A DNA stretch of 64,000 nucleotides from an uncultured cyanobacterium. Lineage in GTDB: Bacteria > Cyanobacteriota > Cyanobacteriia > Cyanobacteriales > CAWCAG01. Shown here one piece after another: positions 942 through 14,120 of this stretch. Numbering within the stretch: position 1 is the stretch's first letter; each line of letters starts with the position of its first letter. The translations under genes and the position numbers were made by a program. Location: assembly GCA_963793425.1 (NCBI GenBank), contig CAWCAG010000001.1:64001-128000 (forward strand), read 5' to 3'. The notes beneath the pieces were generated by a model that did not search any database, was not told where the DNA came from, and was given only the letters and a program-made list of their open reading frames with translations.

Positions 942-1991
942 TCATTGATTATATAGAAAGTCTTTTAAACTTAACTGAATAGGTTCAAAAAAACTAGCAG
1001 TATACTCACTATAAACTTCTGGTAAAAATGATTTATTACTATTAATAAATAAAGTATCTCCTAAAACTTGCAAAGCCCTTTCATTAAGAGATTCGATTAA
1101 TACTTCTGGCATAGTAGCTTGACGATCTGCTATTTGTCTTAAAGCCACTTCATCCCCTGAGACAATTGCCTTAAATACGCTACGTTGTTCTTCATTAAGG
1201 CTAAGATTAAATTCTTGCCACTCTAACCATTCCTTTGGTATATAGCTTTCTCTATTTTCTGGCTCTTCTTTAATTATAGGCTGAGACTGGGGTTCTTTTT
1301 CCTGAACTAAAGTTTGAGTTTGAGTTTGAGGACTATTAAAACCAGACTCCAACTGCTTTTTATAACTAGCTAAATTATGAAGATATTCATTGATTTGGTT
1401 ACGTTGTTTTTGCTTTTCAGAAATTTGTTTACGTAGTCTCTCTAACTCCCCTCGCGATTGGTTGAGGCGGTTTTCTAACTCCCTAATTTGGCCATTTCTC
1501 ACTGTAAGGGATAAAGTCATTTCTGAACCAAGCTTTTCAAGCTGTTGTACTTGCTCCTGGCGCTGCCGTAGACTTGTTTCAAGCTCTTGCTTTTGTTGCT
1601 GAATGTAGCCAAGCTCTTGATAGAGAGTGTTACGTTGGTTGTGTAATTCTGAAACCCTACTTAGTAAATGATTTGATTCAGTGTGTAGAGCATAGTTTCT
1701 CGCTTCTACTTCTTGAATAATTTCTGTAGCCGCTGATAAAGATTGTTGTATTTGAACTTCTTCTGCTTCTAGTTCTTGAATTTCGTCATAAAGATGGAAA
1801 CGAAGCTGTTTTTCTTGTCTGATCCGGTTCTGTTTCGCAATTATGACTCCTAAATAAGCAGAAGGAACGGTTATTATCCCGGTTAAAAGCGCTTTAGCAA
1901 AGTCACGTTGAAGGAATAATCCTAGTCCAAAACTTACACCGAAGGCAACCGAACCTAAAACGAGCTGATTAACTGGCTTGCTGAATCTCAT
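942..1991 (-). CDS. Membrane-anchored coiled-coil protein with a C-terminal TerB_C domain
   Basis: Two N-terminal hydrophobic helices, a long Q/E/L coiled coil, and C-terminal MPEVLIESLNERALQVLGDTL typical of TerB_C. Confidence 0.7.
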   Translation of the reverse strand: MRFSKPVNQLVLGSVAFGVSFGLGLFLQRDFAKALLTGIITVPSAYLGVIIAKQNRIRQEKQLRFHLYDEIQELEAEEVQIQQSLSAATEIIQEVEARNYALHTESNHLLSRVSELHNQRNTLYQELGYIQQQKQELETSLRQRQEQVQQLEKLGSEMTLSLTVRNGQIRELENRLNQSRGELERLRKQISEKQKQRNQINEYLHNLASYKKQLESGFNSPQTQTQTLVQEKEPQSQPIIKEEPENRESYIPKEWLEWQEFNLSLNEEQRSVFKAIVSGDEVALRQIADRQATMPEVLIESLNERALQVLGDTLFINSNKSFLPEVYSEYTASFFEPIQLSLKDFLYNQ

Positions 1992-4746: not shown

Positions 4747-4919
4747 ACTTTCAATAAATATTATGCTGTGGGTAGCTAACAATCTAATTAAGTTGCTAGA
4801 CAGTTAAATGTTTAATCTTATCATGTCGAAGCCTACCTGATAGCTAGTTAAGTTTTATGAGTATAAAGAATTGGCTGGGGAGCTGGGGGGCTGGGGAGAA
4901 AACTAATGGCAACTAGCAA

Positions 4920-7900
4920 CTAGCCACGACAAAGATTATCCCGCAAACTCTTTTCTTGCTGTTTAACTGCTGCTAATAGTTCGGCGTGTTGAATAATTAC
5001 CCCAGCTTGGGAGTTGAAAATATCCATATACTTTTCATCATTTTGGTCAAAGCTTGTACATAAATATTCCGGTATCTCTTCGTTGCCTTCCCTGTAGGGT
5101 TCAGCATAGTCTCCAAAGAGTTTCTTATTAACCAATTGAGTGACCCCAATCAAATCCCCATCAGGATTCCAAACCGGAGTACAAAGTAAGCTACAGGTAC
5201 GATAACCAGTCTTGCTATCGGTCTTTTTGGCAATTTCCGATTGGGGATGGGTGTACAAATCAAAGGGGATATTCAAAGACTCTTTGGTTCGAGCAACAGA
5301 ACCGGCATAACCAACTCCCACTTTAATCCGTAATTCTTTGAGAGAACCATCTTCAAAAGGAATTTTCGTCCACAATTCATTGCTACGGAGATCCAATAAC
5401 CAAAGGGTGCTGCGGTCAGAGTTAATTAATTCTTTCGCTGCTTCCATAACTCGCTTGAGTATATCCTCTGGTTCTAGGGTACTTTGGTTAACAGAACGAG
5501 TAGCAGCCATTAAAGCAGCGGCTACCCTCTGCCCCCTAGCTGTTTTGTGGTAGGAACGGAAGCTTTCTAAAATCATTTGGATGAGGGGAACTTGGGAGGC
5601 AAAACGTTCTTCATCTTTAGGAGTGAATCCCTCTTGGTCAATTCTTGCTTCTAAAGGGGCATTTTGATCACTAAAACGTTTCAGTTTGTTGAGACATTGA
5701 ACAACAGCAAATAAATCTCCTTGCTCGTTTAAAAGAGGGAAATTTAGCATACTGTAGGTACGATAGCCATTTTTACGATCTTGTTCTTTGGCTGTGAGGG
5801 AACGGGGGTCGTCGTAAAAATCGTAGGGAATATTCATAACTTTCTTGCTAGCAGCCACTTCCCCCACAATACCTTTGGTGATGGGAATGCGAATTTCTAG
5901 GGAGCGATCGCCTTCTGCTTGGGCGACAATTGACCAAAATTCATCTCTTTCTTCATCAAGGAGGAAAATACTGGTACGATCTGCTTCAACAGATTTACCA
6001 AGTTTTTGAGAAATGGAACGCAAAGTAGAGTCCATAACTTCATCGAAACCCTGACTTTCCATTACTTGGGTTAACATGGCTAAGGTTTGACTAACCACAT
6101 TTTGGGGATTACCTTCTGCTTGTTCTTTCATGGCAGCGAATTTTTTGGCGTTTTGAATAGCGACCCCAACTTGAGAATTGAATATTTGCATATATTTTTG
6201 GGAGTTGGCATCGAAGCTTGCTTGAAAACATTCCGGTGCTTCTGGCCAGTCAACAGGATTATATGTAGGAAAATTTCCTGGTTTCCTTTTATTTACGAGT
6301 TGAGTAACGCCAATTAGTTCCCCATCAGGACTCCAAACAGGCATACACAAGAGGCTACAGGTGCGATAACCGGTTTTTTGGTCGGTTTCTTGGGCTGTTT
6401 CGGAGTCTATATGGTTGTAGAGGTCAAAACCAATGTTTAAAGGCTCTTCTGTGGCAGCAACTTTCCCGGCATAACCTTGACCTACTTGTACTTCTAATTC
6501 CTTGACGCTACCATCTTCAAAAAGAATTTTTGTCCATAATTTGTCAGCTTCCCTGTCTAATAACCATAAAGTGCTACGGTCGGCATTCATCAATTTTTTA
6601 GCCGCATTCATAACATTGTGAATCACCTCATCGGAGTCGAGACTACTTTGGGAAACGACTCGGGTAGCAAAGGTGAGGGCTTCGGAGGCTTGTAATCTTT
6701 GGGTTAATTTATAGCAGTATTGACATCTTTCAATGATTCGTAAAAGTTCTGGTGCATATTCACTAAATTGCTTTTGGTCAGCTTCGTTAAAACCTTCGCG
6801 ATCAATACGATTAATTAAGGATTCAGTGGGATGATTGTTTTCTTCTAACTTGTTAATTAAGTTAACAACTGCAACTAATTTATTATGTTTATTTAATAAA
6901 GGGACAGCTAAAAGAGTATAGGTGGGATAACCTGTTTGTAAATCGACATTTTCCGGTTTTTCAAAGTTACTATCTTGGGCATAACCAAAAGGCACTTTGA
7001 CCATCTCTTTTAAACTTGTAACCAAATCAACAATTTCGCGATTAGCACTAACTTCTACTTCAGAGCCAAAATAGTTACTTTGATTCCGGGCAATAATTGA
7101 CCAAATTTCACTTTTTTCTTCATCAATTAAATAGATGTTAATGCGATCAACACAAAGCAAATCGCTCATTTTTAAGGTAATAGAACCTAAAATTTCATCG
7201 AGGATATAATCAAAGCCTTTCCCTTCCATAAAGTTAAGCATGGAGAGGAGTTTTTGCTCTTGTTTGGCTACTACTTGCATAAAGTCAGCGTGCAAATTAG
7301 CTAAAGCTTTATTAACCCAATTCCAATTGAATACAGCAGCATAAATGCGATTATAAATACTTAAAATAGGGGTGGACTCTTTCTTCCCTAACCATCTTTT
7401 AACCACCAAACCAGAAAGCCGTAATTCCATTTGTTCAGGAGTTTCTTCAGCAGGAATTTCTCCTAAATTACTTTCTTCGGTAGCAGATTGGGCAGAAAGT
7501 AAAATTTGCTGATAAAGCTGCAAAAGAGGGCCACTCCTTTGACCAATTCTTAAGATGCGATCGCGGATAGTTTTCAAATGAGGCGGATCATCAGTGGCTT
7601 CCCAGTTATCAATGATGCGTCTGCGGACGATATCTTCTACCCACCTAGCAATATCACGACCATAAACATCTCCTTCATTTTCTACTTCTTGTAAGATTAA
7701 ATAACAAATTTTTTGGGTTAAAAAAGGTTGTCCTCCAGTCCAATATAAAACCGCTTCTAATACTTCCTGGGGCTGACTAACTTTTCCTTCTAAACCTTTA
7801 GCTAAAGGTTGGGCTTCTGCTAAGTTGAAGCCATTTAATTCAATGCCACGACCAATATTAAAAGGAGTACAAGTTTTATCTTGAATCAAATCCGAAGGAG

Positions 7901-8450
7901 TTGCTACCCCTAATAAAGCAAAAGTAAGGCGTTGATATTCAATACAAGCGCGGATAAAAGCAAAAAAATCATCAGTACTAAAATTTAAGCTGAGAATACT
8001 ATCAATTTCATCAATAAAAATAACAATTTTGCCCGGTACAGATTCTAATAAAACCTGTTCAATAAACTCGCTTAAACGCTGTACCGGGGGGAGAAATTCT
8101 CTTTCTTTTAGCCAACGTTGCAGTTTGATGCGATCAGCTAATTTAAAATTCATGACTAAGCGTCGCATCACCCCGGCATACCATTGTTCTGGGGTAATAT
8201 CCTGGGAACCAATTTTAGTTAAATCAACAGCCCCACAAGCTACACCTTCTGCTTGCAAGCGGTGCATCGTCCTCACCCGCAAGCTAGTTTTACCCATTTG
8301 TCGCGAATTAAGAACGTAGCAAAATTCCCCTGCTTTTAACCCTTGATATAATTCCTGATCCGCTTGGCGTACCACATAAGTAGGAGCATCTAAATGTAGA
8401 TGTCCACCAACTTTGTAGCTATAATTTAAGGTTCGCTCTTGACTTATCAT
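4920..8450 (-). CDS. AAA_35 (STAND-like) NTPase fused to four CyaB/PDE-type GAF domains
   Basis: Walker A SRQMGKTS, Walker B IFIDEID and [10 protein letters not shown]. Repeated [10 protein letters not shown]...[11 protein letters not shown]...LVNK...F..DE GAF motifs. No cyclase or kinase domain. Confidence 0.85.
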
Positions 8451-8598
8451 GGGTCATTTATCATTGTTGGCGTTTCGCGTAGTCTGGCGACAATGCTCCG
8501 CAAACGTGTAAACGTTGTCGTATTTACTATGCGTTGCCGTAGGCTAGCCTTGCGCCCTGGCTACATTAAACATTAAACGTTAAACATTTATCAATTAA

Positions 8599-10431
8599 TT
8601 AATTTCCTAGGCGATCACTAAAATATTGACGATATAATTCAAAGCGGGGTGTTACCTCATTTCCTTTTAAGTGGACTAAGCCGAGACTGTGTAACTTAAA
8701 TGCTAGTACAGATTCCAACTCCACGGGTTTTCTCATTGTTACTACTTGACTTAAAGCCAGTGCCAACTCTGGATGTTGTTGTAAGTTCCAAAGGTGGCGA
8801 CGCAAGTGATCTCCATAAATACCTGCTTCTGTAGGAGCAGTTTCTGATAGCTTTTTTAGGCTAAGCTGATGTTTAACTAGATGATAGAGAGCGACCTGTA
8901 CTAGATAGGGATGTCCTCCCACAATATTCATCAACTGTTCCACTTGCTCTGAGTGCCAGTTAAGTCCGTAACGTTGAGCAAGATCAGCCACTTGAGGGTT
9001 AGTAAATTCCCTTAATTCAATGGGTAATCCTACATTAAAGGGGGATTGATTAACATTCAAGGGTAGATATACCTCTGTTGAATGTACTACCACTAACCTC
9101 AGCTTCTCCCAGAGATCGCTGTCACCATAACCATAGCCAGCCTCTTCGTACCAAGCCCTTAAAAGTCCGAAAAAGTCATCGGCTACTTTAGGATATTGAA
9201 AAACTCGGTCAACTTCATCTAAGCCTAAGACTAAAGGGCTATCAGCTTCTGGTAAAAGTAGATCCTCAAAAATGGCCGTGCAGTTATCTTTGCTGCCGTA
9301 GGTATCTGTCCAGTAATCATCTACTTTATAGGGTAAACGCAATTTACGGCAAATTTTAGTACAAAACCAGCGTAGAAGCTGATTGAGGTTGGTGAATACT
9401 CCCTTATCTGCGTGTTGGAAGCTTAAGGGGACGGTACGATAGCCTTGTTCTTTGGCTTGGTAAAGAATTCTGGCCATTAAGGAAGTCTTACCCATTTGGC
9501 GTGGTGCTTTGAGGCGTATTAAAGCCCCTGGTTTAACAATTTCCTGGTAACATTGTTCTTCTCCAGGAACCCTTTTGACATAAAAAGCAGAAGCTAGGCG
9601 TACTTGTCCTTTGGGCAATTCTGGTTCAGCGACAGGTAAAGGAGGAGGAGTAGGAGTAGGGCTGAGATGATAAGTTGGAGTTGCTTCATCAATTAGGGGG
9701 AGACACCATCCCCCCTGACCAGACAAAATATTGCTAATCTCTTGGATAATACCAGGAGTATCTTCTGGCGATCGCCAATCTCTTTGATAAGTCCCTTGAA
9801 GGTATCTACGGAGGTCGTGGTTAAGGGGAACTGTAGGGGGACAGTTGATTCTTACGGTAAGGATAATCGGTTTAGTTTGTAAATCTTTGTCTTTAGCTTG
9901 TCTCAACTCCTCAATTAACATTTCGCTTGTTGCTGCTTGGGGAGAAAGAAGGAGTAAAAAGTAATCACACTGTTCTAATTCTGAATCAATTTGTGCTAAC
10001 CAGTTTTCCTCCGTTAAACCGACACTAGCCCTAAAAGCTTGGTGTCCTGCTGTTTCTAGGGCAGTGGCTAATTGGGTAGCTAGTTCATGATCTGGTTCTT
10101 GGTGCAAATAACTAAGGAATACTCGCTTAATCTTCTGGCTGGTTTCTTCCCTGCCCTCTTCTCCTTCCTCTTCCTGGCGTTTTAAAGCCCGTTCTAAGGC
10201 CCCTCTGATTCTCTTTTTTGTTACCTTTTCCCCCAAAGCATTGGAGAGTTTTTGCCATAATTTATAACCCACATACTTTTCGATGTATTGGGGATTGAGG
10301 GGGTAAATCTCTTCATAGGTTCGTCCTTGGCACGAACCGATAAAGACTTCCCTTTCGAGGTCATTAAGATGTTTACCAACTTTTTGATAAACTAAGCGAT
10401 CTACTAATTCTAAACCTTGATCAAAATCCAT
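8599..10431 (-). CDS. N-terminal HTH + TIR + AAA_35 NTPase
   Basis: N-terminal HLNDLEREVF...LWQKLSNALGEKVTKK helical/HTH region. TIR motifs VFLSY and CDYFLLLLS...EMLIEEL. Walker A PRQMGKTS, Walker B LGLDEVD, SPFNVG and GGHPYL. Start set at ATG 10431. Confidence 0.85.
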   Translation of the reverse strand: MDFDQGLELVDRLVYQKVGKHLNDLEREVFIGSCQGRTYEEIYPLNPQYIEKYVGYKLWQKLSNALGEKVTKKRIRGALERALKRQEEEGEEGREETSQKIKRVFLSYLHQEPDHELATQLATALETAGHQAFRASVGLTEENWLAQIDSELEQCDYFLLLLSPQAATSEMLIEELRQAKDKDLQTKPIILTVRINCPPTVPLNHDLRRYLQGTYQRDWRSPEDTPGIIQEISNILSGQGGWCLPLIDEATPTYHLSPTPTPPPLPVAEPELPKGQVRLASAFYVKRVPGEEQCYQEIVKPGALIRLKAPRQMGKTSLMARILYQAKEQGYRTVPLSFQHADKGVFTNLNQLLRWFCTKICRKLRLPYKVDDYWTDTYGSKDNCTAIFEDLLLPEADSPLVLGLDEVDRVFQYPKVADDFFGLLRAWYEEAGYGYGDSDLWEKLRLVVVHSTEVYLPLNVNQSPFNVGLPIELREFTNPQVADLAQRYGLNWHSEQVEQLMNIVGGHPYLVQVALYHLVKHQLSLKKLSETAPTEAGIYGDHLRRHLWNLQQHPELALALSQVVTMRKPVELESVLAFKLHSLGLVHLKGNEVTPRFELYRQYFSDRLGN

Positions 10432-10957
10432 ATATATACTGATAAGACTATGATTGATTTTAATCTGAAATTCAAGATGAGGTAAGGGGTAAAGCAAGAA
10501 TCAAGAGTAAGTTTTCTAGAGTTTTTACTTAAAAAAAATGAACATAATTACTAATTGAATTAAGTGTTTATTCTTGAATTAATATTTTGGTTATCAGATC
10601 CTTTAAAATACTGATTCAGATCACAGCCAAGATACAGTTAATTATTTATTTTTTAGATATAGACTTTGGGGATATAAGTGCTTTCCTTAAGTTATTTTTT
10701 ATTAAGTAGTAGCTAGTATGGGGTTTTATGAGGTCTGGAATAAAGATGGTTTTTGAGATGATTTTATAGCATTAACAAGAACTAAGAAACTTATGGTATT
10801 TCCTGGTTCTCCTCCCTCAAGTATTTAGTTAAAATTATATAAAGTAAGCAATATTCAATCGTTGTTTAATTAATTAAGAAAAAACTGAAATAGTCAGAAT
10901 CAACTTAGCTATTTCAACTGGATTGAAACAAAAGTAAAGTCCACCAGGTAAACAGAA

Positions 10958-11950
10958 ATGTTTAACTTAACTCAAGAAAGAATCGATAGCTGTGTGCGGC
11001 GTTTGCAAGGTGGTTACTTCCGTATTTACGGTAGTTCCAGGGCTGAATATGCTGAATTAATTGCTAGTGTAGCGAGGATTGGTTTAGACAATATTGCTCG
11101 TAGTGATGCTGCCTATCATGATGTAGATCATACTATTCTTGTTACCTTAGCCGGACAAGAAATATTGCGAGGTAAACACATTCGCGAGGGTAATGTTTCT
11201 TGCGATAATTGGTTCCATTCGATTATTTCTTTGTTATGCCATGATATTGGTTATATAAAAGGAATTTGTCGTCAAGATAACCCTCAAGAAAAGTTGTTTG
11301 TCACAGGGAAAGATAGGGAAGCAATCACCTTAAAACCAGGGGCTACCGACGCGGCTTTGACTGATTACCATGTAGACAGGGGCAAACTATTTGTTGAAGA
11401 GAACTTTTCTGGTTATAAACTAATTGACATAGAAGTTATCAATGAAAACATTGAAATGACTCGTTTTCCTATTCCCCAAGCAGGAAAATATCAACAAACT
11501 AGTACCTATGCAGGCTTAGCTAGGGCGGCTGATTTAATCGGTCAATTGGCAGATCCTCACTACTTGCAAAAAATGCCAGCTTTATTTTACGAGTTCTGGG
11601 AAAATGGTACTAGTGAAAAGCTAGGTCATCACCATCCAGGGGAGTTGCGTTCTGCTTATCCTAACTTCTTCAAAACTGTGGTTAGTCGCTATATTCAAGA
11701 GGCTTTGCATCACTTAGAAGTTACCAGACAAGGGCGAGAAATTATTGCTAGTTTGTATGAAAATGTTTGGGTTGTGGAAAATGAGTTAGAGAACAAAGGT
11801 GGTAACAGTTTGGGGCAACTCCCTCGAACCCTACCTTCTATACCTTCTGTAACCGATGTCGGTTCTATTCCGACCAAAGCTAACTTTTTCTCCAGTCAGG
11901 GCGGGCTGGGAAGCTGGTTGCATAAGTCCTTGCGTATTAGTCATGCCTGA
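10958..11950 (+). CDS. HD-domain metal-dependent phosphohydrolase (Npun_R2479-like; class I PDE-like motif order)
   Basis: YHDVDH...CHDIGY...DYHVDRG...EMT...AADL. Confidence 0.8.
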   Translation: MFNLTQERIDSCVRRLQGGYFRIYGSSRAEYAELIASVARIGLDNIARSDAAYHDVDHTILVTLAGQEILRGKHIREGNVSCDNWFHSIISLLCHDIGYIKGICRQDNPQEKLFVTGKDREAITLKPGATDAALTDYHVDRGKLFVEENFSGYKLIDIEVINENIEMTRFPIPQAGKYQQTSTYAGLARAADLIGQLADPHYLQKMPALFYEFWENGTSEKLGHHHPGELRSAYPNFFKTVVSRYIQEALHHLEVTRQGREIIASLYENVWVVENELENKGGNSLGQLPRTLPSIPSVTDVGSIPTKANFFSSQGGLGSWLHKSLRISHA

Positions 11951-13706: not shown

Positions 13707-14120
13707 TTATTGCTTATTACTTATTAGTTGTTCTCCCCCCTGACAACATAGCTTAATCAAATCATCAATCTTTTTTAACTTAGGATCTCCTGCTAAATAA
13801 CCAATACCACGATGTAAATGTAAGCGAAATTGACGGGCGAGAGTTTCTTGATCTGTACCTAAACCATCTTGATAGCAGCGTTGTTTTAAGGCCAAAATAA
13901 AAATATCAGACATTTGCCCAGAAAAGACTTGCCAAGTTAATTCGATATTACTATCAGCAGGAATTGGTATGGGAGAAGGAATGCTTGCCTCAGCCAGGGA
14001 ACGACAAAAGCCCCAGCGACATAAGACATTCCAATGTTCAATTTTAGTAATACGTTTGAGTTTAATTAATTGATCTCTAGCGGTATTTGATAATTTGATG
14101 TTGTTGAGAGGAGGTTTCAT
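13707..14120 (-). CDS. dndE: DNA phosphorothioation protein DndE
   Basis: IKLSNTARDQLIKLKRITKIEHWNVLCRW...SLAE and FRLHLHRGIGYL. Confidence 0.88.
   Translation of the reverse strand: MKPPLNNIKLSNTARDQLIKLKRITKIEHWNVLCRWGFCRSLAEASIPSPIPIPADSNIELTWQVFSGQMSDIFILALKQRCYQDGLGTDQETLARQFRLHLHRGIGYLAGDPKLKKIDDLIKLCCQGGEQLISNKQ

Follow-up and report, generated by a model that had tools for sequence, protein, structure and literature searches.

A conserved three-gene cassette of Cyanobacteria with a TIR-bearing ATPase, a GAF-array ATPase and a phosphodiesterase-like HD protein: a candidate cAMP-gated switch

In a 64-kb window of cyanobacterial DNA (the whole stretch analysed here; 64,000 nucleotides, positions 64,001 to 128,000 of contig CAWCAG010000001.1, assembly GCA_963793425.1, order Cyanobacteriales), two co-oriented genes for AAA_35 NTPases lie beside a divergently transcribed gene for an HD-domain protein. 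The first NTPase, here called A-type, carries a helix-turn-helix (HTH) domain and a TIR domain; the second, B-type, carries four GAF domains. This locus raises the question of whether the three genes act together and, if so, what the GAF array reads, what the TIR domain executes, and what the HD protein removes. A preliminary description, made from the sequence of the window, took the GAF array for a small-molecule sensor, the TIR domain for the effector or signal producer, and the HD protein for the eraser of the signal.

Our results partly supported this interpretation as a whole. We found that the three genes form a conserved unit. Whether the unit is a two-subunit TIR switch gated by 3',5'-cyclic AMP (cAMP), similar to nucleotide-binding leucine-rich repeat receptors (NLRs) and provided with its own linked phosphodiesterase (PDE)-like eraser, we consider about evenly balanced.

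The three-gene unit and its conservation

Listing and translation of the open reading frames (ORFs) confirmed all three genes where the preliminary description had placed them. The two minus-strand ATPase ORFs (8599-10497 and 4920-8450) are separated by a gap of 148 bp, which is longer than the spacing in most orthologous loci, and the HD gene lies at 10958-11950 on the plus strand. The TTG start chosen by the ORF caller at 10497 is probably not used. Because 23 of the 25 A-type orthologues fetched align from the Met at 10431 (two called ORFs extend a few residues upstream), we took the A-type gene as 8599-10431, encoding 610 amino acids (aa). Measured from this likely start, the divergent intergenic region is 526 bp long. 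The features of the cassette, with the basis of each assignment, are as follows.

8599-10431, minus strand: A-type ('executor') gene, probable extent; HTH_VMAP-M9, TIR and AAA_35 NTPase with a winged-helix end, 610 aa (Pfam, orthologue alignment, model)
10159-10431, minus strand: putative HTH domain of the PF26355 HTH_VMAP-M9 type, aa 1-91 (ESM Atlas structure, model)
9724-10125, minus strand: TIR domain, aa 103-236 (Pfam TIR_2)
8617-9615, minus strand: A-type AAA_35 NTPase module, aa 273-605 (Pfam, Walker motifs)
4920-8450, minus strand: B-type ('sensor') gene; AAA_35-like NTPase and four GAF domains, 1176 aa (Pfam)
7266-8450, minus strand: B-type AAA_35-like NTPase module, aa 1-395 (Pfam, Walker motifs)
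6726-7223, minus strand: GAF-A, about aa 410-575, degenerate (orthologue conservation)
6126-6653, minus strand: GAF-B, about aa 600-775, CyaB2 GAFb-like (alignment to 1YKD)
5556-6068, minus strand: GAF-C, about aa 795-965, CyaB2 GAFa-like, full NKFDE motif (alignment to 1YKD)
4956-5483, minus strand: GAF-D, about aa 990-1165, CyaB2 GAFb-like, full NKFDE motif (alignment to 1YKD)
4909-4927, minus strand: terminator-like hairpin at the B-type stop codon (consensus scan only)
10432-10957, no strand: divergent intergenic control region (box searches across orthologous regions)
10958-11950, plus strand: HD metalloprotein of the Npun_R2479 family (NF045583), 330 aa (NCBIfam, model)
10958-11806, plus strand: class I PDE-like core of the HD protein, aa 1-283 (model; the tail, aa 284-330, is of low confidence)

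In a sample of 41 genomes from the order of the window, full-length relatives of the GAF protein were found in eight, plus one cut by a contig end. All eight full-length loci have an HTH-TIR-AAA_35 gene directly upstream and an HD gene that is adjacent and divergent. In a sample of 401 genomes chosen evenly across the class, 30 gave a match at E <=1e-150, and 28 cover the AAA_35-GAF architecture or fragments of it. The 25 new genomes from this sample were searched for the HD protein; 20 loci were fetched, and the HD gene was in the same divergent position in 18 of the 19 that were testable. Overall, the three-gene layout was present in 26 of the 27 testable loci, from at least 12 GTDB families; the count covers loci other than those of seven genomes whose contigs end inside the unit. 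As the same layout recurs in nearly every testable locus, the arrangement is far beyond chance. The outer flanks differ between genera. The preliminary description had made its reading depend on the HD gene being linked to the ATPase pair in other genomes, and linked it is.

The genes are single-copy and fairly conserved, with 55-70% identity across families. Decayed copies were also observed: in G295 a DDE transposase interrupts the HD gene, in G364 the HD frame contains stops, and G205 has truncated ATPase genes. In two genomes, DUF4058 genes separate the two ATPase genes: in G015 (L028:9515-11124), accompanied by an AbiGi-like gene, and in G248 (L081:5536-7474), accompanied by RusA and AHJR-like restriction endonuclease genes.

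The intergenic region shared by the two divergent transcripts contains candidate control elements. In the window, a CRP-like box, ACTGATTCAGATCACA, with two mismatches to TGTGA-N6-TCACA, lies at 10610-10625, and one TTTTATGAGGTC box, of the kind that occurs in phased sets, lies at 10724-10735. Among 24 orthologous intergenic regions, 10 have CRP-like boxes with at most one mismatch, and 12 have at least two TTTTATGAGGTT boxes at a 10-bp spacing; a GCTTTTCTGGTT-like box is the third element shared by the 24 regions. The density of CRP-like boxes was 0.64/kb, as against 0.024/kb in 653,521 bases of other loci and 0.016/kb in contig C1, a 26-fold enrichment over a background that includes coding DNA. 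In the source genome, 10 matches to CRP-family HTH domains exceed the Pfam cut-off.

The GAF-array sensor and the TIR-bearing executor

The NTPase modules of both proteins are intact. The B-type module matched Pfam AAA_35 over residues 16-255 (79 bits, E 3.8e-22; gathering score 27 bits), a partial match to profile positions 4-246 of 331; Walker A (GKTS) is at residue 53 and Walker B (IDEID) at residue 146. Residues G53, K54, S56, D147, E148, and D150 are invariant among 25 orthologues, and so are 99 of the 395 columns of the module. The A-type protein belongs to the same Pfam family (PF14516, matched over its full length with 498.7 bits and an E-value of about 8.5e-150, against the same gathering score), with GKTS at residue 314 and LDEVD at residue 404; all 23 orthologues compared share the Walker A residues G, K, T, and S and the Walker B pair D-E. 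Intact Walker motifs in both proteins had been noted beforehand, and the motifs proved to be conserved among orthologues as well.

The rest of the B-type protein consists of four GAF stretches (Pfam GAF, E 1.4e-47), and the domain scan found no enzyme output domain on it. According to the available text of PMC4411481, the NKFDE motif marks cyclic mononucleotide (cNMP)-binding GAF domains of the PDE/CyaB type. The preliminary description had ascribed an NK...F...D(E) motif to all four GAF domains. The full motif is present in GAF-C and GAF-D, in which N, K, F, and D are retained in all 25 orthologues; GAF-A has NK..F..DQ and GAF-B has NK..F...SQ. In a comparison of the GAF region with PDB, the best match was 1YKD, the cAMP-bound tandem GAF of CyaB2 from Anabaena (E 1.3e-169), followed by the GAF domains of PDE5, PDE2, PDE10, and PDE6. 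GAF-C and GAF-D align to GAFa and GAFb of CyaB2, and GAF-B aligns to GAFb; from this pattern, the array appears to be a duplicated tandem unit of the CyaB2 type. CyaB1 and CyaB2 (GAF-GAF-PAS-cyclase) thus share the tandem GAFa/GAFb and its contact residues with the cassette protein. In the cassette, however, the unit is duplicated to four GAFs, is carried on an NTPase instead of a cyclase, and has a degenerate first GAF.

The residues of CyaB2 GAFb that contact cAMP are Arg291, Thr293, Ile308, Thr309 (backbone), Asp356, and Asn359 (via water) (PMC4411481). In the printed alignment, R625, T627, I642, and D690 of GAF-B and R1013, T1015, I1030, and D1078 of GAF-D are at these positions with identical R/T/I/D, and the equivalents of Thr309 and Asn359 are L or P and T, respectively, in both domains. 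Across the 25 orthologues, the contacts of GAF-B, -C, and -D are retained as R in 24-25, T or S in 24-25, I in 21-24, and D in 25. In GAF-A, only 4 of 166 columns are invariant, versus 34-45 of about 175 in the other GAFs, and neither the contact Asp nor the GYRT motif is conserved. The array, proposed earlier as a small-molecule sensor, is therefore of the cNMP-binding subfamily, with three of its four GAFs looking competent for a ligand.

Since the GAFs are CyaB2-like and retain the contact residues, cAMP is favoured, by homology only, as the most likely ligand; a cyclic ADP-ribose-type product of the TIR domain is less likely. The CyaB2 tandem GAFs bind cAMP with a half-maximal inhibitory concentration of 0.05 uM, versus 2651 uM for cyclic GMP (cGMP), and the isolated GAFb also binds cGMP (PMC4411481). 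At least 120 cluster representatives cover the B-type protein in full; their sole annotation is 'GAF domain-containing protein', and nearly all of the named ones are cyanobacterial.

Because the source genome encodes two GAF-GAF-PAS-cyclases, the synthesis of cAMP in trans is plausible. The genome also encodes a cyclase-TIR-AAA_35 protein, whose gene is close to a B-type AAA_35 gene that carries a GAF fragment. In one variant locus (G011, L032:108-2030), an A-type gene with an HTH-like region, AAA_35 and a class III cyclase (Guanylate_cyc, E 7.9e-14) but without TIR precedes an AAA_35-GAF gene; this locus is bounded by contig ends, with the HD position outside the view. Paired A- and B-type AAA_35 genes number dozens per genome in our searches of cyanobacterial genomes. 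Another B-type protein of the source genome carries WD40-type repeats, in agreement with the earlier suggestion that the GAF array stands in place of a usual repeat sensor.

Two further AAA_35 loci of the source genome (G000) were observed. On contig C9, at about 811-828 kb (L099:2988-19925), an A-type AAA_35 gene adjoins a YcaO/ThiF and PatG-like subtilase cluster, followed by a B-type AAA_35 ORF that starts with the end of a GAF domain and then by the cyclase-TIR-AAA_35 gene. On contig C5, at about 890 kb (L101:2051-5961), a cNMP_binding-HATPase_c gene ends where a B-type AAA_35 gene begins, and a CRP-family HTH match lies about 1.7 kb upstream of this pair.

In the A-type protein, the TIR domain belongs to Pfam TIR_2 (57.2 bits, E about 3e-15; gathering score 28 bits). 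The N-terminal segment of about 92 aa matched PF26355 HTH_VMAP-M9 with template-modelling (TM) scores of 0.83-0.94 in an ESM Atlas structure look-up, a lead only; the segment is helical in the model and conserved in 26 of 26 orthologues. Variable all-helical modules termed 'VMAP-M' have been described in predicted conflict systems (PMC7159879), and HTH_VMAP-M9 may, from its Pfam name alone, be one of them. The full-length model (mean predicted local distance difference test score, pLDDT, 76) consists of the HTH, the TIR domain, a disordered linker, and the NTPase with its winged helix. In Foldseek, the plant TIR-NLR RPP1 was its top PDB match (E 1.3e-11 across 574 columns); Avs3, archaeal ORC2/Cdc6 and related ATPases, CED-4, and EfAvs5 came next. 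This resemblance of the A-type protein to TIR-NLRs in fold agrees with the earlier description as NLR-like.

The preliminary description had also pointed to an acidic helix of the TIR domain, EMLIEEL, as the site of the catalytic Glu. The helix (SEMLIEEL) is present in the window protein. In profile alignments made from 26 TIR regions, S-E-M-x-x-E-E-L falls on S-T-W-C-L-E-E-L of Roq1 and on the corresponding helix of Cat1 ('WDEL'), so that the catalytic-helix Glu of both is set on E175 (codon 9907-9909). The E-values of the PDB TIR chains matched by the profile were weak, from 0.0021 (the Cat1 TIR, the best sequence match) to 1.4, and the single TIR sequence matched no TIR chain in PDB. The catalytic Glu of plant and bacterial TIR NADases presumably lies in the helix after strand C, which corresponds to the E175 position. 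The window protein has Glu at this position, as do 20 of 26 orthologues; the residue before it, E174, is retained in 25 of 26, and all 26 have at least one Glu at 174 or 175. The earlier claim thus stands for the helix, and the canonical Glu is not strict. Judged from these alignments, NADase competence of the TIR domain is plausible.

The HD protein, its family and the neighbourhood of the cassette

The HD protein is a member of the Npun_R2479 family of HD metalloproteins: it matched NCBIfam NF045583 with 426.4 bits (cut-off 400) over positions 1-275 of 275, and it had no match in a local copy of Pfam. The motif order of class I PDEs noted in the preliminary description was recovered as Y53-H54-x3-H58, H95-D96, H138, T168, and A191-D192. 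The motif Y-H-(N/D)-x-x-H ... H-D ... D, with its metal ligands, is invariant in the 25 intact cassette copies, all of which retain H54, H58, H95, D96, H138, R141, T168, R169, R189, D192, and Q196.

We modelled the HD protein on 30 family members, and residues 1-283 of the model are confident (pLDDT 87). In a Foldseek search of PDB, all 50 rows listed were class I PDE catalytic domains (E 1.2e-3 to 7.5e-3, TM about 0.5). In VIA-align, which is independent of Foldseek and covered 48,161 chains, the top 17 were all class I PDEs: Leishmania PDEB1, PDE5, PDE9, RhoPDE, PDE3, PDE8, PDE7, PDE4, PDE2, TcrPDEC1, PDE1, and yeast PDE2. These matches align 224-255 residues with a root-mean-square deviation of 3.4-4.8 and span residues 1-288 of the model; generic HD hydrolases rank below them, with Z of at most 13.3 and shorter alignments (at most 194 residues among the next rows). 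The Z-scores of the class I PDEs are 14.3-16.7, and the tool itself cautions that a predominantly helical model can score as high as about Z 14 with chains unrelated to it; thus, the fold alone is not decisive for the HD protein as a PDE.

Like the invariant motif, two further observations on the family also point to a PDE. PDEase_I was matched, weakly, by 8 of the 30 members (best E 2.9e-4), and no other Pfam family was touched by more than one. A natural fusion (P0126, a cluster of 30 members) joins the HD domain to a CAP-type cNMP_binding domain and a PP2C phosphatase. According to the model, the HD protein is folded like a class I PDE, although it is not filed as a member of that class, and it probably works like one. 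Class I PDEs are described as eukaryotic enzymes in PMC4222275. The cassette shares with them the whole catalytic-domain fold, the order YH(N/D)xxH ... HD ... D, and the association with PDE-type GAFs (as in PDE2, 5, 6, 10, and 11), but the GAF and PDE-like domains are on separate divergent genes, a Tyr replaces the second His of HDxxH (CHDIGY), and the core of about 280 aa has no regulatory extensions.

The family is large: within the length band searched, 4,697 proteins matched at E <=1e-5, and there are several copies per genome, three of them in the source genome. We examined 52 copies from the order of the window: 8 are in cassettes, 16 are beside an OppC-type permease gene, and 28 are in varied places. 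In the six genomes that have both, cassette HD proteins average 63% identity between genomes and permease-linked paralogues 81%, so the cassette proteins evolve faster or are older. Phylogenetic trees were built with IQ-TREE (a quick run, 52 rows) and FastTree (68 rows; L026 was omitted for masked residues). The non-cassette paralogues in both came only from the order of the window; because of this uneven sampling, no origin or rooting of the family is claimed.

Some paralogues have neighbours that we record as separate observations. In the source genome (contig C9, about 120-122 kb; L035:5583-7966), a paralogue is divergent from a pair resembling the cyclic-oligonucleotide-based antiphage signalling system (CBASS), a patatin phospholipase and a CD-NTase (SMODS and AGS_C). 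The same place in the sister genome G001 has a C-5 methylase and a PIN gene instead of the pair, and the adjacency is treated as unproven. Other paralogues lie beside an NNH3-NACHT-pentapeptide STAND gene (L050:6283-9933, G007) and beside a patatin gene (L073:6809-8002, G037). Two HD-family proteins (P0124 and P0125) are fused to PBS-lyase-type HEAT repeats. Among clusters near the HD protein by language-model features (ESM Atlas), one is bacterial (107 members, PDEase_I on 15%) and one is from phages (60 members, PDEase_I on 23% and HD on 17%). These hint, as a lead only, at further small PDE-like HD proteins in bacteria and phages.

In the window, the cassette is flanked on one side by mltG/yceG and DUF3727 and on the opposite side by tsaB (Pfam, NCBIfam), and the composition profile has no sharp GC break at the cassette. 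Farther away, a DndE-like ORF (13707-14120, minus strand) matched Pfam DndE at 3.6e-43 and PADLOC DndE at 2.6e-15, with no other dnd gene among the neighbouring ORFs scanned. A coiled-coil protein with TerB_C (942-1991, minus strand) gave a weak PADLOC match to SngA (2.3e-12).

Proposed mechanism, rival explanations and known systems

On the reading that we favour, the cassette would form a self-contained module for cyclic-nucleotide signalling, with two AAA_35 (ORC/STAND-like) NTPases at its core. The B-type protein would be the reader, with two CyaB2-like tandem GAF units that bind cAMP through GAF-B, -C, and -D, and with GAF-A as a structural or dimerisation copy. Binding of the ligand may be signalled through a helical linker to the B-type NTPase module and alter its assembly with the A-type protein. 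Such an assembly would cluster the A-type TIR domains and lead to NAD+ cleavage, as in TIR-NLR resistosomes and cNMP-activated TIR filaments. The A-type HTH would bind DNA, possibly at the phased boxes in the promoter region of the cassette itself. By hydrolysing the cyclic nucleotide, the HD protein would set the threshold and reset the switch. Through the CRP-like boxes, a regulator of the CRP family, possibly one that responds to cAMP, may control the cassette, and cAMP would come from outside the cassette, with the two GAF-GAF-PAS-cyclases and the cyclase-TIR-AAA_35 protein of the genome as candidate sources. Our data show the domain content, the conserved linkage of the three genes, the CyaB2-type homology of the GAFs with their contact residues, the PDE-like fold with its conserved metal ligands, the TIR-NLR-like fold, and the conserved boxes of the promoter region. 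From these we infer cAMP as the ligand, the hetero-oligomer, the NADase and PDE activities, and the on/off direction of the switch; the outcome may be abortive infection or a physiological response.

A number of observations weigh against this reading. The helical-model caveat on the Z-scores is one of them. The HD protein of the window did not match PDEase_I (PF00233, cut-off 24.8 bits) even at E 10, the whole genome had no match to the PDEase_I hidden Markov model at E <=10, and the HD family profile matched no PDB chain by sequence at E <=10. The class I PDE motif is given as H(X)3H(X)25-35[D/E] in PMC4222275, whereas in the HD protein the spacer from H(X)3H to D96 is 37 residues, two beyond that range; the same source states that PDE substrates are not readable from sequence. 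The 44 HD paralogues examined other than the cassette copies have no AAA_35 neighbour. Among 84 neighbours of 27 of the 28 paralogues that lack both AAA_35 and OppC neighbours (the remaining one, L035, was covered separately), there was one cyclase domain and no cNMP-binding domain. The cassette HD proteins do not form one clade in either tree, with three label changes in FastTree, at least two of them forced, and their divergence is not correlated with the divergence of the ATPase pair (r about 0.1 and -0.05, compared with 0.69 between the A- and B-type proteins; 15 pairs from 6 genomes). Six of the 26 orthologues have T, I, V, A, I or Q instead of the canonical TIR Glu. In all 27 loci with a TIR partner, the three-gene unit is free of any cyclase. 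One locus, in G262, lacks the HD gene and has an alpha/beta-hydrolase gene upstream instead. The window cassette lies among housekeeping genes (mltG/yceG, tsaB) and not in a defence island, and PADLOC matches were confined to the A-type protein, where they were weak and of the TIR type; the B-type and HD proteins had none.

Some of these observations would fit a physiological cAMP regulator, in which the A-type HTH is a transcription or chromatin switch, the TIR domain is a scaffold without NADase activity, and the HD protein tunes local cAMP. The HTH present in every orthologue, the conserved 10-bp phased and CRP-like boxes of the promoter region, the non-strict canonical Glu, the fairly conserved single-copy genes, and the housekeeping flanks would all be expected of such a regulator, and cAMP is a normal cyanobacterial messenger (PMC4222275). 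We nevertheless regard it as somewhat unlikely. A Glu persists at 174 and/or 175 in all 26 orthologues, the combination of HTH_VMAP-M9 with a TIR-plus-STAND-like layout is typical of predicted conflict systems in the available text of PMC7159879, and the distribution is patchy (28 of 401 sampled genomes) with non-syntenic flanks. Copies are decayed or hit by insertion sequences in G205, G295, and G364, and nuclease or abortive-infection genes lie inside the pair in G015 and G248. On another account, the three genes are linked, but the HD protein acts on a different phosphoester (a TIR-made ADP-ribose signal, a 2',3'-cyclic nucleotide or an alarmone) or the GAFs read a ligand other than cAMP. 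Generic HD proteins and (p)ppGpp hydrolases (SpoT, Rel, Mesh1, and small alarmone hydrolases) do match the HD model with Z of 9-13. A precedent is SpdA, which was predicted to act on 3',5'-cAMP and acts on 2',3'-cNMP (PMC4222275). The binding of cGMP by isolated CyaB2 GAFb, the differing equivalents of Asn359 and Thr309 in GAF-B and GAF-D, and the paralogues without a recurring cNMP partner point the same way. This account is unlikely in our judgment, as class I PDEs rank above every other HD fold and match over the entire 283-residue core instead of the HD core alone, PDEase_I is the sole recurring Pfam match in the family, a relative is fused to a CAP-type cNMP-binding domain, and the adjoining gene has cAMP-type GAFs with the contact residues.

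The HD gene might also be only a positional neighbour, sharing a promoter region or carried along, with no part in the function of the pair. The absence of co-divergence and monophyly, the G262 locus, and the fact that most family members are elsewhere, including the 16 of 52 beside an OppC-type permease gene, speak for this. We hold it to be very improbable in view of the divergent layout in all but one of the testable loci from at least 12 families despite changing outer flanks, the catalytic residues kept in all 25 copies, and the conserved boxes of the shared intergenic region.

The cAMP-gated switch would resemble known systems in its logic and differ from them in its anatomy. In Pycsar and Pucsar, cNMP-activated TIR effectors carry a cyclic-nucleotide-binding domain (CNBD-TIR; bioRxiv 10.64898/2026.08.12.744502, PMC11224242). 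The cassette is proposed to share with them a 3',5'-cyclic mononucleotide read by a sensor domain and a TIR NADase switched on via oligomerisation. Their reader, however, is a CAP-type CNBD on the TIR protein, whereas that of the cassette is a GAF array on a separate NTPase subunit, and Pfam found no cNMP_binding domain in the cassette proteins. Moreover, the cassette has no cyclase gene (in the G011 variant, a cyclase replaces the TIR domain) and adds a PDE-like gene and an HTH. The preprint notes immune cNMP cyclases fused to STAND NTPases; the terms GAF, cyanobacteria, phosphodiesterase, and AAA are absent from its main text (supplements not covered). Stand-alone effectors that read a host messenger (10.1101/2025.06.19.660554) follow a logic resembling that of the cassette.

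TIR-NLR and TIR-STAND proteins (RPP1, Roq1; bacterial Avs) likewise have a TIR domain followed by an ORC/STAND-like NTPase with a winged helix. In the cassette, however, the NTPase is Pfam AAA_35 instead of NB-ARC or NACHT, the effector (TIR) and the sensor (GAF) are on two paralogous NTPase proteins instead of one polypeptide, and the sensor is a predicted small-molecule-binding GAF array instead of LRR, TPR or WD40 repeats. Type III CRISPR systems with ring nucleases, including Cat1 (CARF-TIR), provide a parallel for the proposed combination of a second messenger, a TIR NADase, and a dedicated eraser phosphodiesterase (for the role of ring nucleases in this signalling, see PMC13148439), but their messenger, CARF sensor, eraser fold, and RNA-guided signal synthesis are unrelated to those of the cassette. 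Other cyanobacterial A/B pairs of AAA_35 also have two paralogous NTPase modules in tandem, with the output (TIR or cyclase) on the A-type and the sensor on the B-type. The cassette differs from these in the cAMP-type GAF array in place of WD40 repeats or TM segments and in the third gene of the unit. In the vWA-MoxR systems, cNMP cyclases occur along with GAF and a calcineurin-type PDE; neither 'AAA-like' nor 'ORC' appears in the available text of that source (PMC7159879). The anatomy of the cassette is thus set apart by the GAF reader, the second NTPase subunit, the HTH, and the linked eraser. Our literature searches found nothing on the cassette, on AAA_35 pairs (PF14516) or on the function of the HD family (preprint supplements not covered), and a search on cyanobacterial class I-type HD-domain cAMP phosphodiesterases gave nothing on the Npun_R2479 family among the matches listed.

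A broader version of the favoured reading can also be formulated. The Npun_R2479 HD family would be a prokaryotic sister group to the catalytic domain of eukaryotic class I PDEs and would represent an unrecognised cyanobacterial 3',5'-cAMP PDE, and the cassette would be a cAMP-gated, NLR-like TIR death switch in which the eraser sets the trigger level, guarding cAMP homeostasis without a private alarm nucleotide. As a whole, this version is doubtful. If it is true, the cyanobacterial GAF and PDE-like modules would mark the prokaryotic roots of the GAF-regulated PDEs; in animal PDE2, 5, 6, 10, and 11, the GAF and PDE domains are fused.

On the favoured reading, the cassette would offer three soluble proteins with a known candidate ligand, and each step would be open to direct bench tests. 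If the cAMP-gated switch is real, the cassette would be a TIR/NLR-like switch gated by a purine cNMP, with the GAF-array sensor on a partner ATPase and a built-in eraser, and it would extend the logic of Pycsar/Pucsar, CBASS, and type III CRISPR to the ordinary messenger cAMP. It would also assign a specific ligand to one of the paired AAA_35 ATPases of Cyanobacteria, a very large and uncharacterised family, and it would nominate a large, unstudied cyanobacterial protein family as class I-like phosphodiesterases.

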